Assembly (NCBI GenBank): GCA_019307135.1
Contig: JAFDKF010000001.1
Location: 6,104-70,103, forward strand
Origin: Deltaproteobacteria bacterium
Lineage (GTDB): Bacteria > Desulfobacterota > Desulfobacteria > Desulfobacterales > C00003060
Direction of reading: 5' to 3'
DNA length: 64,000 bases
The position numbers were made by a program, and so were the translations under genes. Position 1 is the first letter of the stretch; the number at the start of each line of letters is the position of its first letter. Positions 1 to 40,509 of this stretch are shown here, in pieces. Under the pieces are notes generated by a model that saw only the letters and a program-made list of their open reading frames with translations, was not told the origin of the DNA and searched no databases.

Positions 1-166
1 AGTAACAAGATGGATCTTTTTGGACATAATAACCCCGGAACATTTATCATTGGCCATGTGTAATTGGACCGTCATTATTTTGAAACGCGTGGTGTAAAGA
101 TGCTTTTAGTAATGATAGCAACAAGTTATTTGTGTTGGTATCTATCTCCCAAATTCTACGAATGAG

Positions 167-225
167 CGGTTCAGGGTTTCGGTGAACCCTTGAACCCTGA
201 ACCTCTGAACCCGTGAACGGTTACG
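167..225. repeat. Imperfect hairpin built from GGTTCAG/CTGAACC units and ending GTGAACGGTTACG; same family as 13589-14068, 23401-23458 and 63872-64000
   Basis: GGTTCAGGGTT (168-178) is the exact reverse complement of AACCCTGAACC (193-203). It lies about 40 nt beyond the 3' end of the minus-strand cytochrome gene. Confidence 0.75.
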
Positions 226-265: not shown

Positions 266-1546
266 TTAATACCCCTTATGGCACTGAATACACAACTCCT
301 TTTTCCGATCAAATCTCAACGAAAAGTCGTGACGGCTTCCCATCAGGTTGTGGCATGTGATACACGTAATCTCCGCTTTGGATCTCGGATCAATAGCGCC
401 TTTTCCTATAGGATGGGTGAAAGAAGCATGTCTTTTGTGGCAATCATCACTAGTACAGGTAGTGATTTCATCCGCGCCGAAAAATAGCCTGAAGTTCGAG
501 CCGTGGGGACGATGACAGTCGCCGCATTTTCCTTCTTTAACCGACGGGTGTTTGTGCTTATACTTTTTGTCTCTTAAAAGGTCTGCTGTATCCTCATGAC
601 AGGTGGCGCATGTTTTTGCCTCTTTTGCCTTTATCATGTGGGCTTCGTCTGAGCTATGCGGGCTATGGCAATTTGTGCAAAAAACGCCTGGCCCCACATG
701 GGTGTTGACCTTTCTGAAGTCCTCCTTAATCGACTGGTGGCAGGCAGTACAGACCGACATCCCTTCGGCTTTCACGCCCAAGGGATCTCTTGACTGGGCC
801 GAATTATGACATTGAGTACATTTCTTCCGGGCAAATGGCTTATGCGAACTTTCCTTGATCAAATTCCTCTGGTTTGACGCGTGGGGATTATGGCAGGACG
901 TGCACTTCGCATCCTGGACAGGATAATAACTGTGCGATTTTTTCGCCTCTTTACTTCTAATTCTTTTTGAATGGCAAGAAACACATGCTTGTGTAACGTT
1001 CCTCTTCAGCATGGCTTCATGATCAGACGTGTGGGGGCTGTGGCAGGTCAAGCAGTCACCTTTCTTCACGGGCTTATGCTTGTGTTTCTTTGAAATGATC
1101 TCTTTCCTGGCGTGGCAGCTAAAACAGAGTTCCCCCCTTTCGGCGATTAATAGTTTCCGGTTCTTAGATGAATGAGCGTTGTGGCATTTCAGACACGCCC
1201 CTTCCTCAAATGGGGAGTGACCGTACTTTTTGTCAAAAGCCCCCTTCTTGCCTTTGTGACAGCTTTTGCACAGTTTGCCAATATGCTCTTTGACCAGGTG
1301 TTGGTAATTTGAGGTGTGAGGATTGTGGCAGGTTGAACATTCAAGTTTCTTAAAAGGCGCATGGGCACCCCTGGAGGCGATTTCCCGTTCTAAATCAGTA
1401 TGGCACTTCAGGCATTTTTTTAGGCTGACCCGCGTACTTTCGGCATATGTTTGATCCGCCGCCAGCAGAGCGCTTATGGAGACACAAATAAATATAAAAA
1501 AGGCCCAATAAATCTTTTTCGAAATCACAACTATAGTCTTTTGCAT
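266..1546 (-). CDS. Multiheme c-type cytochrome, 16 heme-binding motifs, secreted
   Basis: ORF-track ORF 266..1579. I place the start at ATG 1546 (MQKTIVVISKKIYWAFFIFICVSISALLAA, a signal-peptide-like N-terminus), which removes the overlap with the upstream gene. I counted 15 CxxCH motifs plus one CxxxxCH (CTSDDCH) in the translation. Confidence 0.9.
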   Translation of the reverse strand: MQKTIVVISKKIYWAFFIFICVSISALLAADQTYAESTRVSLKKCLKCHTDLEREIASRGAHAPFKKLECSTCHNPHTSNYQHLVKEHIGKLCKSCHKGKKGAFDKKYGHSPFEEGACLKCHNAHSSKNRKLLIAERGELCFSCHARKEIISKKHKHKPVKKGDCLTCHSPHTSDHEAMLKRNVTQACVSCHSKRIRSKEAKKSHSYYPVQDAKCTSCHNPHASNQRNLIKESSHKPFARKKCTQCHNSAQSRDPLGVKAEGMSVCTACHQSIKEDFRKVNTHVGPGVFCTNCHSPHSSDEAHMIKAKEAKTCATCHEDTADLLRDKKYKHKHPSVKEGKCGDCHRPHGSNFRLFFGADEITTCTSDDCHKRHASFTHPIGKGAIDPRSKAEITCITCHNLMGSRHDFSLRFDRKKELCIQCHKGY

Positions 1547-1575
1547 CTTATATCCAAATGACCACCAATGACCGA

Positions 1576-3525
1576 TCACTCATGACACGCTGTGCAGTCC
1601 CCGTCGGCAAACGGGCGATGCAAGATCTTGTGCAACAAGCCCTTGTTTTCCGAGGTGTGTGATTCATGACAACCGATACAATCAGAGTCCGATATCGTGA
1701 TTCTACTGTGGGAATTCGCCATAGCTGAAGCTTCGAGATTGTGACAAGTTTCGCACAACCTGGCCCTTTCAGCCGTAAGCAGCCCTTGGATATTTGTATA
1801 GTGGGGCCCATGGCATTTCAGACAGGCCCCTTCCTTTGCAGGACTATGCTTATGTTTATCTTTTTCAATATGAACCCTTAGGTCTGTATGACAGGACAGG
1901 CAAAGGCCCCCCAGGGGTCGGTTCAATTGCCCCTTTATCCTGCTCCCATGGGGATTATGACAGACAGTGCATTCTCCTTGTTCAAGCGGGGCGTGGTTGT
2001 ATTTATTCGTTTTAGAAGCGGCTTGAATCCTGGCATGACACCGGTAACAATTCTCTTCTCCCCTTTCGATCAGTTGAAAGTCATTGTCACTGGCGTGTTC
2101 GTTGTGGCATCTTAGGCACTCACCTTTTGCAAAAGAGGGATGGATAGTTCCACCCTTGACCTCATCCAGCATCCCTTGATGGCAGTTAAAGCAGAGTTTC
2201 TTTTTTGCTTGAATCAACCGTTTCCCCCTGTCATTCGAATGGGGACTGTGGCAAACGACACACCTTCCGATCCTTATTGGGGTGTGGACATTTACCCGAT
2301 CAAAGAGCATTCGCTCCTTCTGGTGGCAGGTGTAACACTGCTCGATTTCAACCAGCTGAAGTTCAAATTTGTTGTCCGATGCATGGGGGTTATGGCAGAC
2401 AACACAGTTTCCTTTCTTAATAGGCTCGTGAATATTTGAACGGGTAAAATCATCTTTCCTGTGACACCTGAAGCATAACGTTTTGCCAGAGTCTTTCAGT
2501 TCATATTCGTTCTTTGATGCATGGGGATTATGGCAGGCAGTACAATTGTTCTCTATTATCGGCTTGTGCACATGCCTCTTCTTGAACGATTCCTCTGTCT
2601 CTTTATGGCACGAATAGCAGAGCTTTCCATCAGGCAGAAGGGTTACATATTTGTTGTCCGTGGCATGGGGGCTGTGGCATGACAGGCAGTTGCCTTCTTT
2701 GACGGGGGCATGGACATGGGCCTTTGTAAAAGCCGTCTGGTTTTCCGTGTGGCACCCGTAGCAGAGCTTTGCCCCTTTTTCTTCAACCTTCAAGGGCTCG
2801 GCTGATCCCGGATGGTGGTGGCAGGCGCTGCACTCGTTTTTGTCAAGCGGCATATGAATGAATTCGTGCAGCAATTTGGGATTGGAAGATGAATGTGACG
2901 TATGACACGATACGCAGCGGCTCTCTCCGACCTTATAGCCCGCGTGGCCTGTGATAAACGTAGATTTCTGAAAATCATGACACTTTGCGCATACATTGTT
3001 TTTTGTGTCAAACAGGCATTGCTCATAATCAGAGGCATGGGCATCATGGCAAACCAAACATCCCTTCGTAGACAAAGGGGCATGTGCCTTTTTTCTGGTA
3101 TAAACATCCTCTTTATGGCAGATAAAACACAGCTCATCCCCCTTTCCTTTTAGCAGGTCTTTGTTCATGGATGAATGGGGATTGTGGCAGTTGACACATT
3201 TTTCCTCTTTTACCGGTCCATGGACATGCTTTTTGTCAAGCATGGCTTTGCTATCCTTGTGACAGGTATAGCAAAGCTCCTTTTCGCTGACCCTTAAATA
3301 CACACCGCCGATCACCCCGTGAGGCCTGTGACACGATTCACACCCATCCTTGGCAACAGGGGAATGCACGACCTTTGCCGCTTTAAATTGTTTGGCCTCT
3401 TCCTGGTGACAGTCAATACACTTCTTTTTGACAAGCCGTCCGATCTTTTTCTGACAGGAAGTGGTGCCGATGAGCATGATGCCGACAAGCAACACGAAAT
3501 AACATAGCGGTTTTATTGGTCTCAT
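1576..3525 (-). CDS. Multiheme c-type cytochrome, 26 CxxCH motifs arranged as 13 tandem di-heme modules; possible lipoprotein
   Basis: ORF-track ORF 1576..3618. The likely start is ATG 3525 (MRPIKPLCYFVLLVGIMLIGTTSC; hydrophobic N-terminus, weak lipobox TTSC). I counted 26 CxxCH motifs. The recurring unit is LCxxCH..(about 15 aa)..HxP(V/I)xxGxCxxCHxPHxS. Confidence 0.9.
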   Translation of the reverse strand: MRPIKPLCYFVLLVGIMLIGTTSCQKKIGRLVKKKCIDCHQEEAKQFKAAKVVHSPVAKDGCESCHRPHGVIGGVYLRVSEKELCYTCHKDSKAMLDKKHVHGPVKEEKCVNCHNPHSSMNKDLLKGKGDELCFICHKEDVYTRKKAHAPLSTKGCLVCHDAHASDYEQCLFDTKNNVCAKCHDFQKSTFITGHAGYKVGESRCVSCHTSHSSSNPKLLHEFIHMPLDKNECSACHHHPGSAEPLKVEEKGAKLCYGCHTENQTAFTKAHVHAPVKEGNCLSCHSPHATDNKYVTLLPDGKLCYSCHKETEESFKKRHVHKPIIENNCTACHNPHASKNEYELKDSGKTLCFRCHRKDDFTRSNIHEPIKKGNCVVCHNPHASDNKFELQLVEIEQCYTCHQKERMLFDRVNVHTPIRIGRCVVCHSPHSNDRGKRLIQAKKKLCFNCHQGMLDEVKGGTIHPSFAKGECLRCHNEHASDNDFQLIERGEENCYRCHARIQAASKTNKYNHAPLEQGECTVCHNPHGSRIKGQLNRPLGGLCLSCHTDLRVHIEKDKHKHSPAKEGACLKCHGPHYTNIQGLLTAERARLCETCHNLEASAMANSHSRITISDSDCIGCHESHTSENKGLLHKILHRPFADGDCTACHE

Positions 3526-3592
3526 ATTTTGATTTGCAGCAGTGTGGCGGGAAATGCCCGCCGTACATTTGTTTAGTCGAGTGGAAAAATGG

Positions 3593-5011
3593 TCAATCGG
3601 TCCTGTACTTTTCTTCAATCCTTTTCAGGGCCTTTTTATTGATCTTTATGTTGGATTCTTTACGCAATTTTGCCAAATAATCGGAAAGCACGATGTTGAA
3701 TTTTTGCTGTCCGACAATTCCCTTTAATCTCCGGGCCACGCGGGAAAATTCCTCAGGCTTCCCCCCTCTTTTTCCCTTCAGTTTTATGATCTTGTATAGC
3801 CTGCCATCCGCAAAGACATCGCTTATCTGCCCGACCTCCAGCCGATTTAGCTCGTTTCTAATTCCAAGAGGAAACCCATCAGCGCTAACCCATACGCGCG
3901 CGCCCTTTGGTGTCCACCTTTCTGACACCTGGGCAGCCAGGTATTCAAAGTTGGCTCCCTCCTTTAATTCCTTCAGGGCCTTCTCAGCATCTTCCCGAGC
4001 CTGAAAGGTCATCTCTCTAAACCATACCTCATAACCCTTTCTGAAGTCGTCTATATTTTCTTCATAGTACTTTGTCAACTCTTTTTTTGCTGGAATGGCA
4101 AGGGGATAGATAATTTTTTCCTTAAATTCGTTAATAAGCAGACCCTCTTTACGCCTTGTAATAATGTCCATGAATGCCGGGTCCTTCGTGTAATTGCGCC
4201 TTAATGCCTCCTGCTCGACCAGCTCATAAGTGATCAGCCCATCCAACGACTGTTGCTTTAGCTCTTCGCGCATCTTTTCTTGCTCGCTATTAGTCTTTAA
4301 CCTGCTAAACATCCTGGCCCTTTTTTGAAATGCCCGTTTCATGTCGTGCACCATGTCATCAAGCGGGATTGGCTGGCCATTGACTCGTGCCGCGACTGAC
4401 TTTTTACCAGCATAATCCTTTTCAGGGTCGAGCAAATCAAACAGTTCTTTGTCAATCTGGATATCCGCTTGTTTTCTTAACATTGCAACAAAGTTTTTAG
4501 ACAACTCTTTCTCTTTTTCCTTTTTCAGTTTTTTCGTGATTCGCCTTTTCCTTTTCTCGAATTCCCCCTCTGGGGCAGACCCGTCTTTCTCGTAATGTTT
4601 TTTGAAATAGTCAAGTAGATCTTCCTCACCTATATCGATTTTGTCGAGCACCTCTTCTTTTCTCAATCTGATAACAGATTGATTTTTTATGGACGCCTGG
4701 AGCTTTTTTTCAAAATCAGGATGCCTGTCGAGTTCGACCCTGTACGCGTCCTGGATTATCAGAGCCTCGTCGATCATCTCTTCAAGAAGGTCCAATATCT
4801 TGATGCTGCCCGCCCCCCCTTCAGCTTGGATCAGGGGCTTATATCTGTGAATGGCCTTGATTCTGTCCTGAATCGCTGTTTCATCTATTGTTTCGCCATT
4901 TACTTCCGCAAGAACCATCGTGCGCTCAGAAGCACAATAAAGGGCATCATGATCTGCTGTGGCAAGCAAAAAGAATGCCATCAAGGCAAATACTGATAAT
5001 TTTCTCATCAT
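3593..5011 (-). CDS. Periplasmic SurA/PpiD-like chaperone with a degenerate parvulin-type PPIase domain
   Basis: Signal peptide MMRKLSVFALMAFFLLATA, a long helical and charged middle, and a C-terminal parvulin-like segment (GANFEYLAAQVSE...GQISDVF...YKIIKLKG). The family call is by eye only. Confidence 0.6.
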   Translation of the reverse strand: MMRKLSVFALMAFFLLATADHDALYCASERTMVLAEVNGETIDETAIQDRIKAIHRYKPLIQAEGGAGSIKILDLLEEMIDEALIIQDAYRVELDRHPDFEKKLQASIKNQSVIRLRKEEVLDKIDIGEEDLLDYFKKHYEKDGSAPEGEFEKRKRRITKKLKKEKEKELSKNFVAMLRKQADIQIDKELFDLLDPEKDYAGKKSVAARVNGQPIPLDDMVHDMKRAFQKRARMFSRLKTNSEQEKMREELKQQSLDGLITYELVEQEALRRNYTKDPAFMDIITRRKEGLLINEFKEKIIYPLAIPAKKELTKYYEENIDDFRKGYEVWFREMTFQAREDAEKALKELKEGANFEYLAAQVSERWTPKGARVWVSADGFPLGIRNELNRLEVGQISDVFADGRLYKIIKLKGKRGGKPEEFSRVARRLKGIVGQQKFNIVLSDYLAKLRKESNIKINKKALKRIEEKYRTD

Positions 5012-5020
5012 ACAGACCTC

Positions 5021-5157
5021 GTTAAGTGGTAGAGTAGTTGAGTGGTTAAGTCGTTATTATTATTTGAATTCATATCGTTTGCCTAAAAATTGGACACTTT
5101 GTATGTTCGCAGCTCTAATACGGTGAAACCATTCAACCACTCAACTATTCGACGATC
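5021..5157. repeat. Inverted-arm element of the GTTGAGT/ACTCAAC family (related to 41523-41614)
   Basis: TAGTTGAGTGGTT (5035-5047) is the exact reverse complement of AACCACTCAACTA (5135-5147), with a loop of about 87 nt. It sits in the 197-nt gap between the lipoprotein gene and the SurA-like gene. Confidence 0.7.
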
Positions 5158-5208
5158 TCTGTCATAATCCTTATCGATTGACTACTGACCTCTGACCACT
5201 CTTCCCCC

Positions 5209-7344: not shown

Positions 7345-7902
7345 CTATCCCCCAAACAGCGTGTCAAACATCTCGGCGACCAGCTCTTTTGCAAGATCGC
7401 TTGTGCTTTTCTTACTGATACCAAAGAGCCGGTCTAAGACCGTTGTCCCTTTTACACTGTGGGTCGCTTCCCATAGAATCTTATAAGATTTTGCATCTAT
7501 TAACTTTAGGGAGACAGAGACTTCCGGATACGAGCTTCCGCCTGTTCGTGAGACACCATACTCTTCAACCGAGCCCACGATGAAGGCCTGAACATTCAAG
7601 CGCTTTGCCCCCCTTTCTGCCACGCGCTTGCTGATTAAACCGTCGCCTTTGAAACCTTCCTCCCTCAGTACCTTGGCGACCTCTCCGAATTCAACAACGT
7701 CAAATATGCCCCGTCTTAAGACCTCTGCGGCCACAACATTCATCACCTTGCCTTCTGCCCCTTTCTCCTGGGTCAGATTTTCAAAAGGCACAATAGCCAC
7801 TGTCTTGATATATGTTAGGTCTGCTGTGGGGTGGATATAGCTGATAGGGCCACCACAGCCTGAAAAGAAGAGCAGGAAGAATATGCATAGCGCATAGCGC
7901 AT
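7345..7902 (-). CDS. Lipoprotein with a CsgG/LpoB/DUF799-like domain (paralog 3 of 3)
   Basis: ORF-track ORF 7345..7995. I place the start at ATG 7902 (MRYALCIFFLLFFSGCGG, lipobox FSGC). It is clearly alignable to 5209..5802 along its whole length. Confidence 0.65.
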   Translation of the reverse strand: MRYALCIFFLLFFSGCGGPISYIHPTADLTYIKTVAIVPFENLTQEKGAEGKVMNVVAAEVLRRGIFDVVEFGEVAKVLREEGFKGDGLISKRVAERGAKRLNVQAFIVGSVEEYGVSRTGGSSYPEVSVSLKLIDAKSYKILWEATHSVKGTTVLDRLFGISKKSTSDLAKELVAEMFDTLFGG

Positions 7903-7965
7903 GGGGTTAATAATTGGTTTCGTCTGCCCTCTGCTTCCTGCCTTATGCGCCATGCGCCATGCGCC
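7885..7965. repeat. Inverted heptamer arrays: (AGCGCAT)x2 facing (ATGCGCC)x3
   Basis: The left array (7889-7902) contains the ATG and first codons of the 7345..7902 lipoprotein gene. The right array (7945-7965) is its 6/7 complement. The two are about 42 nt apart, in the gap after the beta-barrel gene. Confidence 0.75.
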
Positions 7966-10164: not shown

Positions 10165-10428
10165 CTAGGAGGCTGTCCGAGAATTCAAATTTGACGAAAT
10201 CGCCCTTAATAAATTCAAGTGCTTAGCGAGTCCCAATGTAACTTCTCAATAAGTTGGGGCAGATCATGTTTTGCGACTATTCACTGGATTCCCGCCTTCG
10301 CGGGAATGACAGACACTTGCAGCCAATCGTCATTCCCGCGAAGGCGGGAATCCACTAGTTATTACCCTGACTTTTTGAGAAGTTACGTCCCAATTGGGCA
10401 AAAATGCTATTCTCGGACAACCTCCTAG
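10165..10428. mobile_element. MITE-like nested palindromic element A (264 bp); shares its outer TIR with element B at 40074-40317
   Basis: TIR CTAGGAGGCTGTCCGAGAAT (10165-10184) against ATTCTCGGACAACCTCCTAG (10409-10428), 19/20 complementary. Inner inverted repeats are GTAACTTCTCAA / TTGAGAAGTTAC and GGATTCCCGCCTTCGCGGGAATGAC / GTCATTCCCGCGAAGGCGGGAATCC. Confidence 0.75.
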
Positions 10429-10489: not shown

Positions 10490-10640
10490 TGCCCCCTCCC
10501 CGCCTGCCAACGCCTGGGTCGCACGGAGGTTACAATGCCCACACACAAGGCAACCTGCCCGCCATTGCCAGAGATGCCAGCATATAAGCTCAATGCTGTC
10601 TCAGGCGTTGGCAGGCGGGTGGCGGGCAGGTGTGGGGCAC
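10490..10640. repeat. Palindromic REP-like element (CCGCCTGCCAACGCC family)
   Basis: CCGCCTGCCAACGCCT (10500-10515) is the exact reverse complement of AGGCGTTGGCAGGCGG (10603-10618). The outer GTGCCCC / GGGGCAC also pair. The modules CCGCCTGCCAACGCC and CTGGCAATGGCGGGCAGG recur near 22400-22470, the latter in inverted orientation. Confidence 0.7.
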
Positions 10641-12149: not shown

Positions 12150-12207
12150 GATAACCACCTTCTTTAGGGTGTAAATCAAGATTGTTGGTTGTTGAGTTCA
12201 ATTGTAA

Positions 12208-12381
12208 GGTGTCAGTGTTCAGGTTTCAGCTCTTGAAGTTTCGCGATCCTGACACCTGACACCTGACACCCGACACCTGACACCCGACACCTGACACCCG
12301 ACACCTGACACCCGACACCTGACACCCGACACCTGACACCCGACACCTGACACCCGACACCCGACACCCGACACCTGAAAC
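12208..12381. repeat. Tandem heptamer array (CYGACAC)x18 with a partial upstream complement
   Basis: 18 contiguous 7-nt units at 12249-12374, mostly alternating CTGACAC/CCGACAC. GGTGTCAG at 12208-12215 is complementary to the unit. It lies between the YVTN and NHL genes. Confidence 0.9.
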
Positions 12382-12420
12382 CTTTTCCCCAAAACTAAAT
12401 ACGCATCACGGACACGGCAT

Positions 12421-13449: not shown

Positions 13450-13900
13450 GGTGTAATGGGGACTGAATGGCTTATCATTTCAACGGGTTGCAGAAGTACC
13501 GTGACGTTAAGTTGTTCCTATAGCACATTCTGACCAGAAAGTCCCTGTGAAATTTCAAAAAAGCGTCACACCTTAGCCTTATTGTAGGCGTTCACAGGTT
13601 CAGAGTTCACCGTTCAGGGTTACCTTTTGACGCTGATTTTTGGGATTACACTGATTACGCTGATTAATCTGCGTAATCTGCGGAATCAATCTAATCTGCG
13701 TTACTTCTTTCTTTCGTTGGCCTTGCTTGTAGGCCAGCAAGTACTTGACCTGCCCGCTCGTGCCTTAACTCCCATTTGTTTCTTCAGGCATGCCCTGAAC
13801 AGTCCGAATAACCTGTTCTTTCAATATGTTCTCATGTCTCGCATGGCAGGCGGGTGAAACCACGCATGGCAGCGCGGGTGCGTCCGGCGCGATCATACAC

Positions 13901-14068
13901 ACCCTGAACCTTTGAACCCTGAACCTTTAAACCCTGAACCCTGAACCCTGAACCCTGAACCCTGAACCCTGAACCCTGAACCCTGAACCCTGAACCCTGA
14001 ACCCTGAACCCTGAACCCTGAACCCTGAACCCTGAATCCCTGAACCCGTGAACCCGTGAACGGTTACG
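13901..14068. repeat. Tandem heptamer array with (CCCTGAA)x15 perfect core, ending GTGAACGGTTACG; an inverted partner arm lies at 13589-13625
   Basis: 15 perfect units at 13932-14036, flanked by degenerate units. The left arm GCGTTCACAGGTTCAGAGTTCACCGTTCAGGGTTACC is complementary in unit sequence. Confidence 0.9.
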
Positions 14069-14103
14069 TTTTATTTAACCTTTGCGGAGGGGTTTGCCAA
14101 ACA

Positions 14104-14143: not shown

Positions 14144-14761
14144 ATGTTTACGTTAAACGTATCTGGCATAGGCAAGCATTATGGAGAAACACTGTTGTTC
14201 AAAAACATCTCCTTTCAGTTGAATCAAGGAGATGTGTTGGCTGTTGCCGGATGGAACGGATCGGGCAAGAGCACCCTGCTTCGGATTATTGCCGGTCTTG
14301 TAAAGCCATCGGCTGGTCAGGTTGAAATGTTTTTCAACAAGGAGCCCATACCAAGAGAATCGAGGCGGGGGTTTGTTGGTATGGTGGCGCCTGCCTTATC
14401 TCTGTATGACGAGTTGACGGGTCTTGAGAACATGGAGTTTTTCTGCAGGGTGAGAGGCGTCGCCTGCAATCGTAACGATTGTCTCGACATCATTGATCGT
14501 GTGCGGCTGACGGAACATGCAACAAAAATGTGCAGGGACTACTCTTCCGGGTTGAAGCAAAGGTTGAAACTGGCTCAGGCGTTGCTCCATAAACCACCGC
14601 TATTATTGTTAGACGAACCAGGGTGCAACCTTGACAGCCAGGGGATTAAGGTTGTGGAAGAGATTATTTCAAATCAGAGGCAATTAGGGATGACCGTTAT
14701 TGCATCAAACGAAAAACGGGAGGTGGGGTACGCAGGCAAGGTCGTCAACCTATCTGAATGA
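14144..14761 (+). CDS. ccmA: Heme exporter ATP-binding protein CcmA
   Basis: Walker A GWNGSGKST, ABC signature YSSGLKQRL, Walker B LLLLDEP. First gene of a ccm-ordered cluster. Confidence 0.85.
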   Translation: MFTLNVSGIGKHYGETLLFKNISFQLNQGDVLAVAGWNGSGKSTLLRIIAGLVKPSAGQVEMFFNKEPIPRESRRGFVGMVAPALSLYDELTGLENMEFFCRVRGVACNRNDCLDIIDRVRLTEHATKMCRDYSSGLKQRLKLAQALLHKPPLLLLDEPGCNLDSQGIKVVEEIISNQRQLGMTVIASNEKREVGYAGKVVNLSE

Positions 14762-15422
14762 GGCCGTCGCTATTTGGCTTCGTGATCTACGCAGCGAATT
14801 CAGGACCCGCTATGCCCTGAATGCCATCCTGATGTTTGCTGTGACCACCCTCATAGCTGTGAGCTTTTCCATTGGATCCTTCCGCATCGAAGAAGCTGAA
14901 AGGCCCTTTTTATTTTCAGTCCTGTTATGGATAATTTTGACCTTTTCCGCCTTATCCGGGCTTGCCCGCTCCTTTGTCAAGGAAGAAGAGGCCGGCACCA
15001 TAGACGTATTGAAGCTTTCTGCGCGCCCCCAGGCTGTATTCTTGGGAAAGCTATTTTTCAATTTGACCCTGTTGGGAGCTTTGGAGCTCATCATTGTGCC
15101 ATCGTTTGTTCTCTTGATGTCCTACCAGATAAACTCTCCGGGCTTTTTTATCGCCATAATCATCAGCGGCGGGCTTGGTTTGGGGGCGGGCACAACGATA
15201 ATCGCTGCAATGATAGCCAGGGCCAGTACCCGGGGAGCGTTGTTTTCTGCCCTGTCTCTGCCCTTGCTCTTGCCCCTCATGATTACCTGTATCAAGGGCT
15301 GCGAAAGGGCTGCCATTGGCATGAATAATGCGAGTTGGCCTGAGGTCAAAGTCGCTGTTGCCTATTTTATAATAATGATTACAATGTCGTTGCTGCTATT
15401 TCCTTTGGTATGGGAAGAATAA
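14700..15422 (+). CDS. ccmB: Heme exporter membrane protein CcmB (start uncertain)
   Basis: Polytopic membrane protein between ccmA and ccmC. The ORF-track start is TTG 14700, overlapping ccmA by 62 nt. No in-frame ATG occurs before NAILMFAV, so the true start is unresolved. Confidence 0.7.
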   Translation: MHQTKNGRWGTQARSSTYLNEAVAIWLRDLRSEFRTRYALNAILMFAVTTLIAVSFSIGSFRIEEAERPFLFSVLLWIILTFSALSGLARSFVKEEEAGTIDVLKLSARPQAVFLGKLFFNLTLLGALELIIVPSFVLLMSYQINSPGFFIAIIISGGLGLGAGTTIIAAMIARASTRGALFSALSLPLLLPLMITCIKGCERAAIGMNNASWPEVKVAVAYFIIMITMSLLLFPLVWEE

Positions 15423-15438
15423 AAGGATCAGGAGATTT

Positions 15439-16098
15439 ATGATCTGCAAAATCCTATTGACAATCTGGATGGCTGTTATCATTGTTGCTTCCTTTTTGTA
15501 CGCAGGAGCAGCCGCTGGCTTTCCAGGCGAGACGTCCCGCATTTTGTTTTTTCATGTGCCCCAGGCATGGATTGCAACGCTGGCTTTTTTGATATCGATG
15601 ATAGCAAGTGCTGTCTATCTGGCCAAACGCCGTGTGAAGGCAGACTATTTGGCTCAATCTGCCGCAGAACTGGGATTCCTATTCTGTGTTCTTGCCACGA
15701 TTACCGGTTCTGTATTCGCAAAGGCTACATGGGGGGCATTTTGGAATTGGGATCCCAGGCAGACCTCGATTGTAATACTGCTCATGATTTATGGGGCCTA
15801 TTTTGCTATCCGTTCGGCAGTCAGTGATCCTGACAGAAGACGGGTATTTGCGGGGGTATATTCGATCCTGGCTTTTGTCACAGTGCCATTTTTGGTCTTT
15901 GTTGTTCCACGGATAACAACATCACTCCATCCTGAGAACACGATGAACCCCGCCAGTCCTGGTATGGACCCGAAAACCTTGAAGGTGTTCTTAGGCTCAT
16001 TATTTGCGTACACCGGATTGTTCGTCTGGATGCTCTGGTTAAAGATAAGGGTATTAAGGATTGAGGGATTGAGGAATTTGGGAATTGAGGAATTGTGA
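15439..16098 (+). CDS. ccmC: Heme exporter protein CcmC
   Basis: Trp-rich WWD-type motif WGAFWNWDPRQT. RBS AGGAG upstream of ATG 15439. The C-terminal residues RIEGLRNLGIEEL are encoded by ATTGAGG-type short repeats. Confidence 0.85.
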   Translation: MICKILLTIWMAVIIVASFLYAGAAAGFPGETSRILFFHVPQAWIATLAFLISMIASAVYLAKRRVKADYLAQSAAELGFLFCVLATITGSVFAKATWGAFWNWDPRQTSIVILLMIYGAYFAIRSAVSDPDRRRVFAGVYSILAFVTVPFLVFVVPRITTSLHPENTMNPASPGMDPKTLKVFLGSLFAYTGLFVWMLWLKIRVLRIEGLRNLGIEEL

Positions 16099-16262
16099 AT
16101 CGGATGCCAGATGCCTGATAGTAGATGCGAGTCACCTGGTTCCAACACATCTGGCATCAGGGATCGGGTTTCAGCCAGACACGAAGTGAAGCTTGCGCTA
16201 AACGATTCGCAACTAACGGATAACAAATAACAAATAACGATTCACGAAATGGGGGCAGACGC

Positions 16263-16385
16263 ATGAAAGAGGGTTTGAGTTTTGTCATGGGGGTTAATCT
16301 TATTATATGGTGTGGCATAGCCCTTTACCTGTTTATCTTGGATCGTAGGATCAAGAAGCTGGAAGAGAGGAATACGGACACGTGA
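16263..16385 (+). CDS. ccmD: Small membrane protein, CcmD-like (40 aa; absent from the ORF track)
   Basis: My translation: MKEGLSFVMGVNLIIWCGIALYLFILDRRIKKLEERNTDT. It has a single TM helix followed by a basic/acidic tail. The TGA (16383-16385) overlaps the ccmE GTG (16382). Confidence 0.6.
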   Translation: MKEGLSFVMGVNLIIWCGIALYLFILDRRIKKLEERNTDT

Positions 16386-16768
16386 ACATGAAAAAATCCT
16401 ACATCATCGGTGCCGTTATTATCGCTTTAGCCATGGTAATGGCGATGTATTCTTTCAAGTCAACCATGACCACTTATGTGAGTGTCAGCGAGGCCAGGGT
16501 GAGCCCTCGACCGGTGCAGGTGGCCGGGATTGTAGCTCTGGGGAGCAAGAAGTATGACCTTCAAAACAATAGATTGATCTTTACCTTGCGGGAAGACAGC
16601 GGCGACGAGATACCGGTTGAATATCACGGGCACAAACCTGCAAATTTTGATGATGTCACAAAGATTGTTGCTACAGGCAAGTACAACACGGAAAGACGGG
16701 TATTTGTGGCAAGAGAACTGCTGGTCAAGTGCCCTACTAAATACGAACAGCGGGTTAAAGGGCAATGA
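16382..16768 (+). CDS. ccmE: Heme chaperone CcmE, CxxxY variant
   Basis: N-terminal TM anchor and OB-fold-like body. The C-terminal KCPTKYE has CxxxY in place of the canonical HxxxY. The start is GTG 16382 (GTGA overlap) or ATG 16388. The stop overlaps the ccmF ATG (ATGA). Confidence 0.8.
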   Translation: MNMKKSYIIGAVIIALAMVMAMYSFKSTMTTYVSVSEARVSPRPVQVAGIVALGSKKYDLQNNRLIFTLREDSGDEIPVEYHGHKPANFDDVTKIVATGKYNTERRVFVARELLVKCPTKYEQRVKGQ

Positions 16769-19020
16769 ACAATCCTGGTCAGATTACTCTGTGGTTGGAA
16801 CTGATTGCTATTTTTGTATCCTCAATATCTTACCTGGTATTGTGTTTCAAGAAACAGCACGCCCCCGCACAAAAAGTGGCCCGTCTGGGTTTTGTCGGCT
16901 TTGCCATATGTACTACCATAGCTTCAATCCTGTTGATGTACTTCATCCTGAATCACGATTTTCGTTACAGCTATGTAGCCGGATATTCGTCCCGTGACCT
17001 ACCCTTAGAGTATCTGATTAGCTCCTTCTGGGCGGGCCAGGAGGGGAGCTTCCTTCTGTGGGTATTGCTTGGGTCCTGGCTTGGCATCCTGCTTATGTTC
17101 AAGGCAAAGGATATGGAGCCCCAGGTGATGCTCATCTATAACCTGAATCACATCTTCCTTATAATTCTGTTGATCAAGCAGAGTCCCTTTGAATTACTCC
17201 TCTTTCCTCCCCCTGACGGTCACGGGCTAAACATGCTCCTGCAGGACCCGTGGATGGTTATCCATCCGCCTGTGGTGTTTTTAGGTTATGCTGCATTTGC
17301 CATTCCTTTTGCCTTCGCCGTTGCCGCTCTATGGCGCAGAGAATATGACCGGTGGGTAAGGCCTGCCCTGCCCTGGACTGCTTTCGCGTTCGTGAGCTTG
17401 GGGGCTGGTATTTTCATTGGCGGTTATTGGTCGTATAAGGTCTTGGGGTGGGGCGGCTATTGGGGCTGGGATCCAGTGGAAAACGCGTCCCTTTTGCCGT
17501 GGCTTGCAGGAACCGCATTAATGCACGGCATGATATTGCAGCGCACGCTGGGCAAATTGCCCAAGACAAACTTCTTGTTGGCAGCTCTTTCGTTCGTTTT
17601 GGTCATATATTGCACGTTTTTGACGCGCTCAGGGGTTCTTGCTGATTTTTCGGTCCATTCTTTTGTGGATCTCGGGATTACCGGTTGGCTGGTCATCTTC
17701 ATGCTTGCACTCCTGGCGATCTCCCTTGGTCTCTTAGTCATCCGGGCAAAGGATATCCCTGTGCCCAGAAAGGGCAAAAGCATCAAGTTGTTTTCCAGGG
17801 AATTTGGCTTTATCGCCGCCATTATCCTCCTTTGCCTGTGTACGGTTTTTACGGGCCTGGGCACGTCTGCGCCTCTTATAACCAGGGTGCTTGAAAAAGC
17901 CTCAAAGGTGTCAACTGAGTTTTACGTGTACGTGAATTTGCCTCTGGCGATTCCTATGCTGTTGTTGTTGAGCTTTGTTCCGTTGATGGTCTGGGGGAAA
18001 AACAGCCTTTCGAGGCTCGGCCCCAAATTGATCTGGGCCATAGCAGGCGCGATCGTAGCGGTGCTTATCACCCTGTTGAATGGATATCCGGATATGGGGG
18101 TGGGGCTCGTTTCACTTGGGGTGTTGCTCCTTTCACTGTTTGCCGGGGCTGCTGTGGGGATGAATCTTTTCTTGACTGCAAAGCTCATCAGAAAGAAGAT
18201 AATAATCTCAAGTGCTCCAATCGCCCATTTAGGGGTTGGTGTGATGTTTCTCGGCATCGTTGCATCCTCTGCCTATGATAAGTCCGAGAAGGTATTGCTT
18301 GAGCAAGGCGCTGTTAAAAGCGCAATGGGCTATGAACTCGAGCTCGGTGAATCGGCGTTCTCAAGGGAGGGCAAGGGGGTCCGTCTCCGCCTTCCCCTGC
18401 ACGTGGAAAAAGAGGGCGCTAAGTTCATCGCTCAGCCCGATATATACTCTGAACGCGCACCAGATGGTCAGGCCAAGCGCTTCATGCATCCCCATATTGA
18501 GCAAGGACTTGTGTCAGACCTTTACATATCTCCGGTGGATTATCTCCCCGGCAAAAAGAACAATTGTTCAGGAAACCACATCGTATTACAGAAGGACAAC
18601 GAGGTTAAGTTTCATGACTACAGACTAAAATTCGTGGGTTTTGATGTGTCGGGCATGATGGGCAGAAAAGGCGCACAGGATATGAGCGTAGGGGCCGTTA
18701 TTGTGGTTTCCTATAAAGGAGCCGAATCGGTTAGCTTGAAACCGATGATGATTATGGGAAAAAAAGACGACCTCTCAAGCCGGGTCAAACTGCCCGGGCC
18801 GGAAGATGCCTATCTGACTCTCATGACCATAGACGCAGGCGCCAAAACGATTGGTCTTGCCTACCACGGACCGGCATCTGCTGCCAAGAAACATATTGAA
18901 AAACCCCCTGCGCTGATTGCGGAGGTTAGCATAAAACCCGGCATGACCATGCTGTGGCTGGGCACTATCCTTATTCTTGCAGGAGGCACTATCGCTATTG
19001 TTCGGCGTTTGCCGAAATGA
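16765..19020 (+). CDS. ccmF: Cytochrome c-type biogenesis protein CcmF (751 aa, long C-terminal region)
   Basis: Polytopic membrane protein with the WWD motif WGGYWGWDPVENASLLPW. Translationally coupled to ccmE. Confidence 0.85.
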   Translation: MNNPGQITLWLELIAIFVSSISYLVLCFKKQHAPAQKVARLGFVGFAICTTIASILLMYFILNHDFRYSYVAGYSSRDLPLEYLISSFWAGQEGSFLLWVLLGSWLGILLMFKAKDMEPQVMLIYNLNHIFLIILLIKQSPFELLLFPPPDGHGLNMLLQDPWMVIHPPVVFLGYAAFAIPFAFAVAALWRREYDRWVRPALPWTAFAFVSLGAGIFIGGYWSYKVLGWGGYWGWDPVENASLLPWLAGTALMHGMILQRTLGKLPKTNFLLAALSFVLVIYCTFLTRSGVLADFSVHSFVDLGITGWLVIFMLALLAISLGLLVIRAKDIPVPRKGKSIKLFSREFGFIAAIILLCLCTVFTGLGTSAPLITRVLEKASKVSTEFYVYVNLPLAIPMLLLLSFVPLMVWGKNSLSRLGPKLIWAIAGAIVAVLITLLNGYPDMGVGLVSLGVLLLSLFAGAAVGMNLFLTAKLIRKKIIISSAPIAHLGVGVMFLGIVASSAYDKSEKVLLEQGAVKSAMGYELELGESAFSREGKGVRLRLPLHVEKEGAKFIAQPDIYSERAPDGQAKRFMHPHIEQGLVSDLYISPVDYLPGKKNNCSGNHIVLQKDNEVKFHDYRLKFVGFDVSGMMGRKGAQDMSVGAVIVVSYKGAESVSLKPMMIMGKKDDLSSRVKLPGPEDAYLTLMTIDAGAKTIGLAYHGPASAAKKHIEKPPALIAEVSIKPGMTMLWLGTILILAGGTIAIVRRLPK

Positions 19021-23388: not shown

Positions 23389-23400
23389 TTCTCTTGTGGG

Positions 23401-23458
23401 GGTTCACAGGTTCAGAGTTTCGGTGAACCCTGAATCTGTGAACCCATGAACGGTTACG
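23401..23458. repeat. Hairpin of the GGTTCAG/CTGAACC family ending ATGAACGGTTACG
   Basis: GGTTCACAGGTTCAGAGTTTCGGTGAACCCTGAATCTGTGAACCCATGAACGGTTACG. It starts 12 nt after the pgsA stop and ends 4 nt before the ATG of the radical-SAM gene. Confidence 0.8.
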
Positions 23459-25325: not shown

Positions 25326-25632
25326 GTTTTTGCTCAATGCAAAATGGAAAGTGCAAATGAAAAATGAAAAAATAGCCCCGTATTCGCCGAAAGGTTGCGG
25401 TTGCGCGGCTCGTTTCGGTGATCGGTTGTGGGAGCGGCTTTCTAGCCGCGACCATCGGGGCTGAAAGCCCCTCCCGCAGCGCCCTGGCACGACAGCTCGT
25501 AGGGGCGGGTTTATCCCGCCCGAATGACAGGCGGCGTAAAGCCGTCCCTACGAGAAAAACCCGGTCTGGGCCAGGGTCTCGAAAAATGACGCAGCCGACT
25601 GACGATAGCCGTTAACTCGATGAGGATAAACC

Positions 25633-26001: not shown

Positions 26002-26307
26002 TCATGATTTTCTCTTCGACGTGATAGCTTCTATCTCCTGGCGGATGAGTTTCTTTCTGGACCAGCGCTGGAGCTTTCCGATCAGGCCATATTCATAGGC
26101 CTGGTCCACCTTTTCTTCCTGTAGCTTGAGGCCTTCAGGGCCGCGCATGGCTGCCTGGAGGCACGACTTGGCATAAGGGCACCTCATACATTCGGGCGGG
26201 ATTGTGCGTAGTCCCTCCTCGCCTACAGGAAAAACCGTGTCAAGCTGACCAAAGCACTCCGGATGTTCAATGATTTGGGATTTGGGATTTGGGATTTGGG
26301 ATTTCAT
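26002..26307 (-). CDS. Hypothetical small Cys-containing protein (PECFG...PECMRCPYAKSC)
   Basis: ORF-track ORF 26002..26337. The first plausible ATG is 26307 (MKSQIPNPKSQIIEHPEC). Codons 2-11 are encoded by a heptamer repeat, so the start assignment is fragile. Confidence 0.45.
   Translation of the reverse strand: MKSQIPNPKSQIIEHPECFGQLDTVFPVGEEGLRTIPPECMRCPYAKSCLQAAMRGPEGLKLQEEKVDQAYEYGLIGKLQRWSRKKLIRQEIEAITSKRKS
26272..26303. repeat. Tandem heptamer (GATTTGG)x4, i.e. GGGATTT units
   Basis: Four perfect units at 26272-26299 plus a partial one. It overlaps the predicted 5' end of the 26002..26307 ORF. Confidence 0.9.
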
Positions 26308-27709: not shown

Positions 27710-27736
27710 TAGGAAATTAAGAGTAAAATTAAAAAG

Positions 27737-27963
27737 GGGTCGGGCCAAGCTATGTTGCTGATATTCGTAGAAATGATCAGGAGATATGGGCTGATATTGG
27801 CCCTATAATGGCATTTTGGGGTCAAAAAGGAGCGGTTTCAGCAGGCGCACATGGCGAGAGCAAAGTGATATCTTTGGTACTAAAAATCTCGATATTGATG
27901 CTGAAAACAGCTATTTCTGAAACATTAATCCAGATATTTCAACATGATAGCTTGGCCCGACCC
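27737..27963. mobile_element. MITE-like element D (227 bp) with a perfect 17-bp TIR
   Basis: GGGTCGGGCCAAGCTAT (27737-27753) is the exact reverse complement of ATAGCTTGGCCCGACCC (27947-27963). No credible ORF inside. Confidence 0.65.
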
Positions 27964-28259
27964 TATTTGCTGTCAAGATTCTCACCCTTACGTTTGCGTC
28001 CGGCTTAATTCAATCATTATTTATCGCTGTTTCCTGCCATGTCCAGGCCTATCAGCGTGGAGAGTGCCTTGAGGAAACGTTTTTGAAAGCTGAGAAAGGG
28101 CCTGCAGTTATTACCAGAATTTTTCCATGGGGTTCTAAACCTCAAGGAGAAGTTTTTTCACCTTTGCATCTTTTTGGGGATCCCTCCCTTGTGGTAATCA
28201 AATCAGAATAAGTGAAGAAAAAGCTCATCTATTTACTAACAGGAAGGAATTGATAAAAT

Positions 28260-35744: not shown

Positions 35745-35842
35745 GTCACGTTATTCCCTATTCTTATCCATTCACTTTTTCAGATATAGAGGATGTCCGT
35801 TATGAGTTGTCCGTGGTCCGTTGCTGGACTACCAACTATCAA

Positions 35843-35892
35843 CTAACTACTGACCACTAACTACTGACCACTGACCACTGACCACTGATCAC
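35843..35892. repeat. Short-period array of CTGACCA/CTAACTA units
   Basis: CTAACTACTGACCACTAACTACTGACCACTGACCACTGACCACTGATCAC. It spans the stop codon (35857-35859) and encodes the last residues (..SGQWSVVSS) of the OMF gene. Confidence 0.85.
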
Positions 35893-37314
35893 TTCACTCG
35901 GCTCTGCCCATCCGCCGCCCAAAGCCCGATGTAATGCGACTCGGTTACTCAGAATGGCAAGATCGACCAAGGCCAGGTTCTCCTCGGCCTTGAACCGGGT
36001 TTGCTGGGCCTCCAGCACGGTTAGGTAATCCACTATACCCCGTTTGTAGCGCTTCTCGGCCACATCCTGGGTGGCTCGAGCTTCCACCAGAAAATTCAGT
36101 ACCCGATCCCGACGTTCCAACTGCTCCTTACGAGTCAAGAGGGCGCTTTCCACCTCGTAAAATGCCGTCAACACCGTCTTTGCATGTTCGGCCACGCCCT
36201 GCTCATATCTTGCCTCTGCTGCCCGTTGGCCGGCCTTCAATTTACCGGCGTCAAACAATGGTTGCGCAATGCCCAGGGCCAGGTTCCACAACTTGCTCTC
36301 ATGCCGTAAAAGTTGATCCAATTCCTCGCTGGAGTACCCGAAACTGCCCGTCAAGGTAATGCGGGGAAACCGGTTGGCCCTGGCCACGCCCATCCGGGCG
36401 TTTAAGCCCATCAATCTGGCCTCGGCTGCTCTGATGTCCGGCCGACGCAACAAGAGATCAGAGGGCAGGCCTGGCGGCACCGGGGCCAGGCGTTTAAAGT
36501 AGTCTTCCGGCTGGGTCCGAGGTGGTCGAGTCTCGGGGTAGCGTCCCAGCAGCACGGCCATTTTCTGCTGGGTGATTCCCAGGTCCTGACGGAGGGATGG
36601 GAGGGCGGCTTCCGCCTGGGTCAGGGTGCGACGGGCCTGCCTTAAATCCAGGACAGAGGTCAGACCGCGCTCGTAACGACTTTCGACCAGGGCTAAACTG
36701 CGGCGGTAGTTTTCGATGCTCAGCAAAGTAATCTGTATCCGCCGCTCTAAGGACTCCATCTGTAAATAGAGACTGATCGTCTCGGCCACTACGGTTAGGG
36801 CTACAGTACGACGGTTTTCCTCCGCCTCATAGAGATCGGCCCGCACCGCTTCTTCAGCCCGAGCCAGACGACCCCACAAGTCCAACTCAAAGGAAGCGGG
36901 CAATGAGAGTGTGTAGATGTCGGTTTCAATACTAAAACTCTTGCCCGGTATGACCCCAATGATCGGCCGATGTTGCCGTCGACCCTGACCCTCAAGGCTT
37001 AAGTCGGGGAAACGGTCTGCTCTGGTCTGGACGAACTGGGACCGCACCTCCAGAATCCTGGCTGTGGCCTTTTTGATGTCTAAGTTGTTTTTCAATACTT
37101 CCTCTACCAGTTGGTTTAATTCCGGATCGGTGAAAACCTGCCACCACCAGTCTTCGGGCCTGGGTATTACCGTCTCGGTCGGGGCATGCTGGTAGGACTC
37201 CGGCATTTGGATACCGGTGTCGGGTCGCTGGTAATCCGGGCCCACCTTCATACATCCGCTTGATACAAGGAGAGTGGCTAAGGCCACAAACAGATGAAAG
37301 AACATGTGCTTCAC
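35857..37314 (-). CDS. Efflux outer-membrane factor lipoprotein (NodT/TolC family)
   Basis: Lipobox LVSSGC followed by VGPDYQRP. Two repeated TolC-like halves. Confidence 0.85.
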   Translation of the reverse strand: MKHMFFHLFVALATLLVSSGCMKVGPDYQRPDTGIQMPESYQHAPTETVIPRPEDWWWQVFTDPELNQLVEEVLKNNLDIKKATARILEVRSQFVQTRADRFPDLSLEGQGRRQHRPIIGVIPGKSFSIETDIYTLSLPASFELDLWGRLARAEEAVRADLYEAEENRRTVALTVVAETISLYLQMESLERRIQITLLSIENYRRSLALVESRYERGLTSVLDLRQARRTLTQAEAALPSLRQDLGITQQKMAVLLGRYPETRPPRTQPEDYFKRLAPVPPGLPSDLLLRRPDIRAAEARLMGLNARMGVARANRFPRITLTGSFGYSSEELDQLLRHESKLWNLALGIAQPLFDAGKLKAGQRAAEARYEQGVAEHAKTVLTAFYEVESALLTRKEQLERRDRVLNFLVEARATQDVAEKRYKRGIVDYLTVLEAQQTRFKAEENLALVDLAILSNRVALHRALGGGWAEPSEVISGQWSVVSS

Positions 37315-39064: not shown

Positions 39065-39083
39065 GTTACCTCCTTATTTGATT

Positions 39084-39223
39084 GCGGAATGCGGAATGCG
39101 GAATGCGGATTGTTTTTCTTCTCCATTTGATTCCAAAATCCGAAATCACGTGGGCTGGATGCTGGTTACTCGTTGCTGGAATTGTTTTTCATTCCGCAAT
39201 CCGCAATCCGCATTCCGCATTCG
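39084..39223. repeat. Inverted heptamer arrays: (GCGGAAT)x4 facing (ATTCCGC/AATCCGC)x4
   Basis: The left array (39084-39111) and right array (39191-39218) are mutually complementary, with a 79-nt spacer. It lies between the cysC 3' end and the SDR start. Confidence 0.9.
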
Positions 39224-39901: not shown

Positions 39902-39964
39902 GTTTATTGTGTTTATTGTGTTCGTTGTGTTTATTGTGTTTGTTGTGTTTACACGGTTTGTTGT
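39902..39964. repeat. Tandem 9-mer array (GTTTRTTGT)x7
   Basis: Seven contiguous 9-nt units. Complementary CAACAAAC-type units occur at 40444-40513, at the other end of the same intergenic region. Confidence 0.85.
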
Positions 39965-40073
39965 GCCTGCCTTGCCCGCCCTGGCGCTTGGGCTTATATT
40001 ATGAGCTACCAAGCCAGCAATTCAGGTCTGGGCCAAGGGTGCGTACCACACTTTACTGCCTGCCCTACGTGCC

Positions 40074-40317: not shown

Positions 40318-40406
40318 TGCTTACTGCTTGCTAAAAGCCGTAAAGCTGGCAAACCAGGCCCGCCCTGGCGCGTCTGCTTGTTATAAGGTATTAAGCTGTT
40401 AAACCC

Positions 40407-40442: not shown

Positions 40443-40509
40443 GGTTTGTCGTGTTTGTTGTGACCCAATAAACCCAACAAACTCAACAAACCCAATGAAC
40501 CCAATGAAC

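Follow-up and report, generated by a model that had tools for sequence, protein, structure and literature searches.

A probable IS66-type miniature inverted-repeat element with an expanded heptamer sub-repeat, and the 7-9-nt arrays around it, in an uncultured Desulfobacterales genome

Tandem arrays of heptanucleotide units reportedly occur in heterocystous cyanobacteria as short tandemly repeated repetitive (STRR) sequences, which are said to have small dispersed repeats (SDRs) embedded in them; insertion of the SDRs via single-stranded DNA or RNA intermediates is said to have been proposed once. Direct repeats of the unit TAACTGA are present in marine Beggiatoaceae, cyanobacteria and Bacteroidetes, and a regulatory role has been proposed for them (PMC4679880). 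In Xanthomonas and Nostoc, heptamers of the types GGGAATC and GGGGAYT have been tentatively attributed to polymerase slippage, and a passage of the same article, citing Mrazek 2007, refers to heptamer over-representation in many bacteria (PMC4692102). Insertion sequences of the IS66 family, on the other side, have ends starting with GTAAGCG, terminal inverted repeats of 20-30 bp and 8-bp direct repeats (PMC11946415), and the family member ISDge4 has GTAAC/GTGAC ends with an 8-bp repeat (PMC12898284). Here, we analyse a window of 64,000 nucleotides (the whole stretch of DNA studied, part of contig JAFDKF010000001.1 of a Deltaproteobacteria bacterium of the order Desulfobacterales), focussing on an element with heptamer arms at positions 13584-14067 and on the other short-period arrays that surround it. 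An earlier interpretation, made from the letters of the window without database searches, is referred to below as the sequence-only reading.

The element at 13584-14067 is probably a non-autonomous, IS66-type miniature inverted-repeat transposable element (MITE), belonging to a family with many copies in uncultured Desulfobacterales of marine sediments and cold seeps. The rest of the window is best read as a mixture of dispersed palindromic families and solo arrays. A cognate IS66-family transposase, supplied in trans, would move the MITE family, and the long terminal array of the window copy would have grown by replication slippage. The remaining loci would comprise several more dispersed palindromic families, MITE-like or REP-like (for repetitive extragenic palindromic), with arms of 7-9-nt units, plus the solo heptamer arrays; slippage with a preference for 7-8 nt may have lengthened and shortened both kinds. 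If arrays were tolerated in intergenic spacers only, they would end up by stop codons and ribosome-binding sites.

Evidence for transposition comes from the family as a whole. Its inverted ends are about 36-40 nt long, start with GTAAGCG, GTAACCG or GTAGGCG followed by TTCAC, and finish with GTGAACGGTTAC; each end consists of about five xTGAACC units at 7-8-nt spacing. The left ends of complete elements read GTAAGCGTTCAC, GTAACCGTTCAC or GTAGGCGTTCAC and the right ends GTGAACGGTTAC, an imperfect inverse of the right terminus, (C)GTAA(G/C)CGTTCACAGGTTCAG, lying upstream. Among 48 complete elements in metagenome-assembled genomes (MAGs) of Desulfobacterales, 8-bp target-site duplications match at all eight positions in 22, at seven in nine and at six in four, whereas an offset control reaches six matches in one of the 48. 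The target is typically a G followed by A/T-rich sequence (G-N7) in an intergenic spacer. Since GTAAGCG-type ends together with 8-bp target duplications are the signature of the IS66 family, we assign the MITE family to this type.

The family is also short, non-coding, multi-copy and dispersed, with at least 109 loci in dozens of MAGs. In a scan of 185,579 species-representative genomes, the 20-mer TGAACCCRTGAACGGTTACG was found in at least 109 stretches, against about nine expected by chance according to our estimate; about ten of the matches listed lack array context (e.g. L045, L074, L078 and L013, contigs and loci being given by such handles throughout), in agreement with that estimate. 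Nearly all matches listed are in MAGs of Desulfobacterales, Desulfobacteraceae or Thermodesulfobacteriota, and one MAG (CSMAG_456) holds at least 11 MITE loci. Measured end to end, copies range from 64 to 484 nt, with a peak at 220-300 nt (34 copies) and smaller numbers at 150-220 nt (15) and 64-150 nt (11). Two interior types occur, and from one MAG to another each is 80-93% identical. Some contigs that carry copies with full array context have been assigned to Bacteroidota, Anaerolineales, Aenigmatarchaeota or Gammaproteobacteria bins (L003, L010, L015, L031, L043, L051, L098); all of these contigs are short or of low coverage, and mis-binning is likelier than transfer across phyla.

Candidates for a full-length relative were examined and rejected. 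Pairs of ends spanning 2.8-3.3 kb in L083 and L055 enclose ordinary genes and represent two MITEs flanking regulator genes, and 55 large open reading frames (ORFs) upstream of solitary ends, considered as possible transposase genes, look like housekeeping genes. The arrangement in L083 (CBETWD010000008.1, reverse-strand positions 2201-4969), in which two MITE copies lie around 2.8 kb with a response regulator and a 548-aa regulator-like protein, could be composite and transposon-like.

The anatomy of the window copy is given in Table 1. Its coding content is nothing but a spurious 29-aa ORF. The nested 80-nt hairpin breaks a junction, GGGTTAC|CTTTCTTTCG, that is contiguous in other copies, where GGGTTAC runs straight into CTTTCTTTCGTTGGCC (L011, L052, L069); because the junction is unbroken in these other family members, we read the hairpin as inserted into the MITE. 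At the orthologous site in the sister species L032, whose flanks are the same and 94-98% identical, only a 64-nt hairpin of two joined ends is present. The window copy is thus an old insertion whose decayed duplication is shared with this sister species, and it has since gained interior modules, including the nested hairpin, while its right-end sub-repeat grew from about five to 22 units. Five is the commonest count of xGAAC units, spaced at 7 or 8 nt, in 146 family ends, and the window copy has the highest; the 99.8% identical strain L001 has 15 and the next unrelated copy nine. The 49-nt (7-unit) length difference from L001 is the sole multi-base indel across the 11 kb common to the two. The array consists of a homogeneous core, (CCCTGAA)15, with degenerate units on both edges, and its simplest reading is a slippage expansion of the terminal sub-repeat. 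Arrays as stacked footprints of target-site duplications were also considered, and ruled out, the arms being inverted, not direct, and the dominant period 7, not 8.

Three further copies of the family lie in the window: a truncated one, a minimal one made of ends only, and one that extends beyond the right end of the window. The sequence-only reading had placed one and the same 13-nt terminus at four loci. It is exact at 213-225 and 14056-14068 only; positions 23446-23458 have ATGAACGGTTACG instead, and at 63872 the inverted copy is shifted by one base. Four matches to the degenerate 14-mer CCRTGAACGGTTAC are present in the window, against 0.03 expected.

Table 1. Positions of the MITE copies, short-period arrays and hairpins in the window (TRF, Tandem Repeats Finder; z, fold z-score)
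Feature	Position	Strand	Remarks
Left target-site duplication, GCCTTATT (decayed)	13576-13583		6/8 match to GTTTTATT; same flanks in L032
Left terminal inverted repeat, GTAGGCGTTCAC then GGTTCAG-type units	13584-13625	+	Aligns with left ends of 48 complete elements; complements right arm
Nested 80-nt hairpin, 9-nt units GATTACRCT / complement	13626-13705	+	Arms 13630-13665 and 13666-13701; z -7.2
Mosaic interior modules	13706-13900	+	Segments match L040 (87% over 86 nt), L069, L052, L043; interior absent from L032
Right terminal inverted repeat ending GTGAACGGTTAC, xTGAACC sub-repeat at 22 units	13901-14067	+	TRF 22.3 copies
CCCTGAA perfect run	13930-14036		15.3 units, within 22.3-unit array 13901-14061 (TRF)
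Right target-site duplication, GTTTTATT	14068-14075		
Truncated MITE copy, inner hairpin and right end	150-224	+	Resembles 'type c' right halves of related loci
Minimal, ends-only MITE copy	23396-23457	+	Orthologous copies in L061, L072; z -5.5
MITE copy of ~155 nt, left end 63872, extending beyond window end	63872-64000	+	L191 gives remainder, ending ...CCTGTGAACGGGTAC
8-nt-unit arms (TCGTTAAG / AACCACTC), spacer ~70 nt	5019-5157		Relative in L064; z -0.9
GCATAGC x2.6 / ATGCGCC x3 arms	7885-7902 and 7945-7965		z -2.1
Short left arm (GGTGTCAG-type) and long right array (CCTGACA/CCCGACA, 19 units)	12198-12383		
CYGACAC array	12248-12383		19.4 units; actually 14-nt super-unit x9.6 (TRF)
ATTGAGGA x4.5 array (8 nt) at ccmC 3' end, and ATAACAA x2.7 array	16060-16238	+	
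Degenerate AATGAAA array	25336-25371	+	TRF
GATTTGG solo array	26272-26304		x4.7 (TRF)
ACTGACC x6.4	35849-35893		TRF; ACTGACC/ACTAACT array 35835-35893 overlaps OEP gene 3' end
Hairpin, TGCGGAA x4 / TTCCGCA x4.7 arms	39080-39222		TGCGGAA x3.9 at 39083-39109, complement x4.7 at 39190-39222 (TRF); abuts ribosome-binding site of downstream minus-strand epimerase gene; z -5.3
Composite element, 9-nt-unit arms (GTTTATTGT / ACCCAAYAA) around 63-nt module copies and other palindromes	39902-40515		
Hairpin of 8-nt units (TGTTGAGT / ACTYAACG)	41525-41614		z -3.7
Second dispersed palindromic family, CGAAATCC-type 7-8-nt-unit arms	60505-60657		Homologous copies in L020, L034, L052, L117

Turning to the window as a whole, Tandem Repeats Finder and inspection of the sequence located the arrays listed by the sequence-only reading essentially where it had put them, all of them intergenic or at ORF edges except for one in-frame 9-nt repeat in a gene. 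Exact match-runs of at least 11 nt number ten at period 7, two at period 8 and four at period 9, compared with 0.02-0.04 runs for each of these periods in 50 local shuffles (0.02 at period 7); periods 2-6 and 10 gave no such run in the window and about none in the shuffles, and runs also occur at the multiples 14 and 21. A peak at period 7, whose absence genome-wide would have refuted the same reading by its own account, is found in two larger samples as well. In 672 kb of loci selected for the MITE, there are 50 runs at 7, 14 at 8 and eight at 9, other non-multiples giving 0-2 and periods 12, 15 and 18 giving 9-16. In 395 kb of metagenome contigs selected by cysC, a choice without bias towards the MITE, the numbers are 18, two and seven, and mostly 0-1 elsewhere. 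The period-7 excess is real. As a correction to the sequence-only reading, the GTTGAGT-type loci (5019-5157 and 41525-41614) and the ATTGAGG locus have period 8, and the loci at 39902-40515 and 13630-13701 period 9. Array density per 100 kb is 27 in the window and 9-14 in the other sets. A total of 69 distinct heptamer units were counted at 111 places in 1.13 Mb, and therefore the diversity of units at a constant period is real. There is, then, a strong lineage-wide excess of tandem 7-nt, followed by 8- and 9-nt, units of many different sequences.

Complementary arms, which had been noted from the letters, are frequent. When two reverse-complement units with at most two mismatches were looked for, 33 of 110 arrays in the window and related loci had an inverted partner no more than 700 nt away; control searches with reverse-only or complement-only units gave 2-3 of 110. 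Folded as single-stranded DNA, seven of eight tested hairpins have z-scores of -2 to -7, the hairpin at 5015-5160 giving -0.9.

At least four other window units, CGAAATCC, TGCGGAA (in L121 and L123), ATTGAGGA (in L095) and TAAAGTGCC (arrays of this type at seven or more loci), recur at non-orthologous loci elsewhere and so belong to dispersed families. The sequence-only reading's 'each locus with its own unit' does not hold for these, and was partly an effect of sampling only 64 kb.

Other small elements accompany the arrays. A dispersed module of about 63 nt, GCCCGCCCTGG(C/T)GCGAC-N33-CC(C/A)GGTCTGGGCCAGG, has 21-29 occurrences in 1.1 Mb (window 40122-40187, 40350-40445 and 25563-25575; also L032, L034, L035, L052, L072, L093 and others). 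It is often tandem (GGTCTGGGCCAG x3.2 at 40407-40445), often adjoins 7-9-nt arrays of differing units, and, where arrays form hairpins, appears to be inserted in one of the two arms. The sequence TCCCGC-N3-5-GCGGGA, a mini hairpin of 15-17 nt, was counted 27 times in 1.13 Mb, against about one expected, often within xTGAACC or other arrays (L004, L006, L007, L027, L041, L087, L103, L110 and others); the two copies at window 10285-10354 together make up an inverted repeat of 26 nt without mismatch. A palindromic family built on GTTCCCACGC(A/T)GAGCGTGGGAAC is present as inverted pairs at 57538-57692 and 63420-63581, and related GTGGAAAC/GTGGGAAC motifs lie downstream of cysC in L123 and L157. 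Long imperfect inverted repeats not made of short tandem units are found at 27732-27968 (33-nt arms 171 nt apart) and 10490-10628 (27-nt arms 85 nt apart). Finally, the 221-nt segment 58346-58566 has an 86%-identical second copy at L191 5729-5949, about 2.4 kb past the right end of the window.

Related genomes reveal how these loci change over time. Two Joint Genome Institute (JGI) metagenome contigs, L001 and L191, are 99.8-100% identical to parts of the window, and contigs of the cold-seep Desulfobacterales MAGs CSMAG_143, CSMAG_1091 and CSMAG_1531 are 94-99% identical over orthologous genes, which places the organism among the uncultured Desulfobacterales of marine sediments. The flanking genes in the window are housekeeping genes and genes for multihaem cytochromes; two large genes of the latter kind, one with 8 and one with 11 paired-CXXCH domains, and a complete ccmABCDEF cytochrome-maturation cluster, within 266-3618 and 14144-19020, are consistent with a sulfate reducer from a seep that can pass electrons to the outside of the cell. 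Sister genomes differ by the presence or absence of whole modules that bear arrays. In L032 (about 1175-1645), the ccmB and ccmC orthologs are separated by a composite palindromic insertion of 470 nt, with 63-nt modules between its TAAAGTGCC-type arms, in place of the 12-nt spacer with the ccmC ribosome-binding site that is present in the window at 15423-15438; the ccmC-end arrays differ between the window and L032 by indels of 25 and 12 nt. A 130-nt insertion is found in L072, and spacers are replaced in L061 and L072: the GATTTGG array is kept in L061 and its region replaced in L072, whereas the AATGAAA array is common to L072 and a different spacer stands in L061. At the epimerase site, L112, L123 and L157 have a single AATCCGC arm of 2-4 units just upstream of the ribosome-binding site, where the window has two arms; the relatives keeping this array have 78-89% CysC identity to the window. 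Upstream of the cysC ribosome-binding site, the window and L112 have an ACAAYAAAC array in common, with a different interior.

Several observations weigh against the interpretation of the window as an IS66-type MITE among further mobile palindromic families and slippage-prone arrays. An IS66 transposase with these ends was looked for in the window, in about 1.1 Mb of related loci, among them 672 kb of flanks of MITE loci, the sampled contigs being short MAG contigs, and, by BLAST, in PLSDB plasmids; none turned up, and it is for this reason that we only infer an enzyme acting in trans. The CGAAATCC family has no target-site duplication in four copies, none was seen at the other window hairpins, and five hairpins (those at 41520, 7880, 12195 and 35800, and the nested 9-nt one) have no relative in the 1.1 Mb sampled; mobility may therefore not extend to all arrays. 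Slippage alone leaves the shared 7-9-nt period of both arms in so many elements without explanation. The arrays kept at orthologous sites near ribosome-binding sites across 78-89% protein identity could reflect function. As for the comparison between strains, which the sequence-only reading had recommended, unit number does differ between near-identical strains (22 versus 15), but L001 is a short-read assembly whose lower count could partly be array collapse, so exact copy numbers are uncertain.

Four rival explanations, and one broader proposal, have to be set against this. According to the sequence-only reading, a common generating mechanism rather than common descent underlies the arrays; in such a scheme, each locus would be created in place and without mobility, a chance proto-repeat being extended by slippage and then mirrored through template-switching (inverted duplication). 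The many heptamer units, the five hairpins without relatives and the single AATCCGC arm in three relatives of the two-armed epimerase hairpin are in its favour, as are the 14-nt super-unit and the homogeneous array cores, which look like slippage products. For the GGTTCAG/CTGAACC subfamily this idea is refuted by the 8-bp target duplications and the hundreds of copies, which make it a transposed MITE family; elsewhere, the recurrence of several other units in other genomes and the coming and going of whole array-bearing modules as blocks speak against it, and we regard purely local generation as unlikely. What is left of a common mechanism is replication slippage with a 7-8-nt preference, which is already in the literature (PMC4692102). 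It is a little harder still to see the families other than GGTTCAG as REPIN-like, that is, as palindromic doublets whose single-stranded hairpins are moved by a REP-associated tyrosine transposase (RAYT) or an IS200/IS605-type tyrosine transposase without target duplication. The CGAAATCC family, dispersed, palindromic and lacking a visible duplication, would suit this, and the elements are extragenic and inserted into or beside one another, as in REPIN clusters (PMC3116915). REP families are, however, few per genome and uniform in sequence, compared with dozens of units here, and a scan of 30 window proteins, like the annotation of neighbouring genes, revealed no Y1 transposase or RayT; the co-occurring RayT-like gene whose presence the sequence-only reading had suggested checking is thus missing from the window, as is any transposase gene.

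A role as functional cis-elements is improbable in our judgement. The arrays might be tandem sites bound by a protein that covers about 7 nt of single-stranded RNA or DNA (a cold-shock or S1-type OB fold), or mRNA hairpins tuning stability or translation, and most of them do lie between same-strand genes, several ending 5-20 nt before a start codon or ribosome-binding site; their position is conserved across orthologs, and the TAACTGA repeats of Beggiatoaceae provide a published precedent (PMC4679880). Yet when both strands of ten hairpins of known gene orientation were folded for signs of selection at the RNA level, five favoured sense, four antisense and one was tied, so that neither strand folded better overall, and the strand folds had no G-U asymmetry. 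A scan of the whole window with Rfam 15 gave no match at gathering score, and intrinsic-terminator predictions around the locus were at chance level; U-tracts are missing from the hairpins. The units are, moreover, highly diverse, and close relatives differ freely in how many copies they have and in whether an array is there at all. Arrays between same-strand genes and by ribosome-binding sites are what would remain if purifying selection removed insertions in genes, and the A/T-rich G-N7 target preference points towards intergenic placement too. Most likely, the arrays are neutral or selfish DNA, and an influence on operon mRNA would be a secondary, hypothetical regulatory side-effect. An assembly artefact in low-complexity sequence, against which the sequence-only reading had warned, has next to no probability: L001 ends at the CYGACAC array and has the shorter CCCTGAA array, but the same arrays and hairpins were recovered in at least five independent assemblies, namely L001 and L191 (two JGI samples) and L032, L061 and L072 (three cold-seep MAGs), and the family is in dozens of MAGs, leaving only exact copy numbers uncertain. 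The broader proposal is that the 7-9-nt periodicity stems from a lineage-specific mobilisation of palindromic modules via single-stranded DNA or RNA intermediates, with arms that are tandem sites for a protein of about 7-nt footprint, and with one mechanism across cyanobacteria, Beggiatoaceae and Desulfobacterales; we consider it a long shot.

Seen as a whole, the window harbours palindromic mini-elements and heptamer arrays in a community that is typical of the lineage. No new kind of system is revealed; the feature is mostly of known kinds, in a lineage for which no earlier description was found. Its interest lies in the point that transposon ends can give rise to long heptamer arrays, which offers a testable account of at least some STRR-like bacterial repeats, and in an abundant, apparently undescribed MITE family with several companion mini-elements in environmentally important sulfate reducers, including partners of methane-oxidising archaea. 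The repeats fragment MAGs assembled from short reads; they may also affect the expression of operons and could be of use as strain markers. L001, a short-read contig, breaks off precisely at the CYGACAC array 12248-12383, and such arrays are a likely systematic cause of MAG fragmentation in the lineage.

Compared with IS66 insertion sequences and MITEs derived from them, the family shares the GTAAGCG start (with the variants GTAACCG and GTAGGCG), the 8-bp duplication, inverted ends and short non-coding dispersed copies. It differs in having no partner transposase identified in the sampled sequence, and in its longer ends (about 36-40 nt) of about five tandem xTGAACC units that are expandable into microsatellite-like arrays; ends-only copies of 64-126 nt carry target duplications too. 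With REP sequences and the bacterial interspersed mosaic elements (BIMEs) and REPINs composed of them (PMC3116915), the window elements have in common that they are extragenic palindromes between operon genes, in clusters and with nested insertions. In contrast to REPINs, the MITE family of 13584-14067 makes 8-bp duplications, which implies DDE-type transposition, no RAYT is seen in the window, and there are many more sequence families per genome.

Among the heptamer systems, the sequence-only reading had pointed to filamentous cyanobacteria and was aware of no equivalent in a cytochrome-rich anaerobe. The STRR-like resemblance stands, and literature searches found no description of heptamer arrays for Desulfobacterales; the repeats are, however, not confined to cyanobacteria, being documented also in Beggiatoaceae, Bacteroidetes, Xanthomonas and 'many bacterial genomes' (PMC4679880, PMC4692102). 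Like the TAACTGA repeats, the arrays described here are intergenic heptamer arrays of variable copy number in sediment bacteria, often just upstream of start codons, but the former are essentially one direct unit, with one inverted case, whereas here we find dozens of units, frequent inverted arms, and only some arrays abutting ribosome-binding sites. The Xanthomonas and Nostoc repeats likewise form intergenic arrays of 2-26 units, some of them as inverted pairs, with length variation between close relatives; they are G-rich, G-quadruplex-prone and have one dominant unit, whereas the units here are diverse and not G-rich.

With STRRs, the arrays share tandem heptamers of several unit types in intergenic regions at many loci, in company with mini-transposons and tiny nested palindromic insertions, the TCCCGC-N3-5-GCGGGA hairpin embedded in arrays being the counterpart of the SDRs. 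The phylum is a different one, the closest genomes being Desulfobacterales MAGs, and the units differ from the canonical STRR sequences. In contrast to STRRs, one array here has an explicit origin, as the expanded terminal sub-repeat of a MITE.

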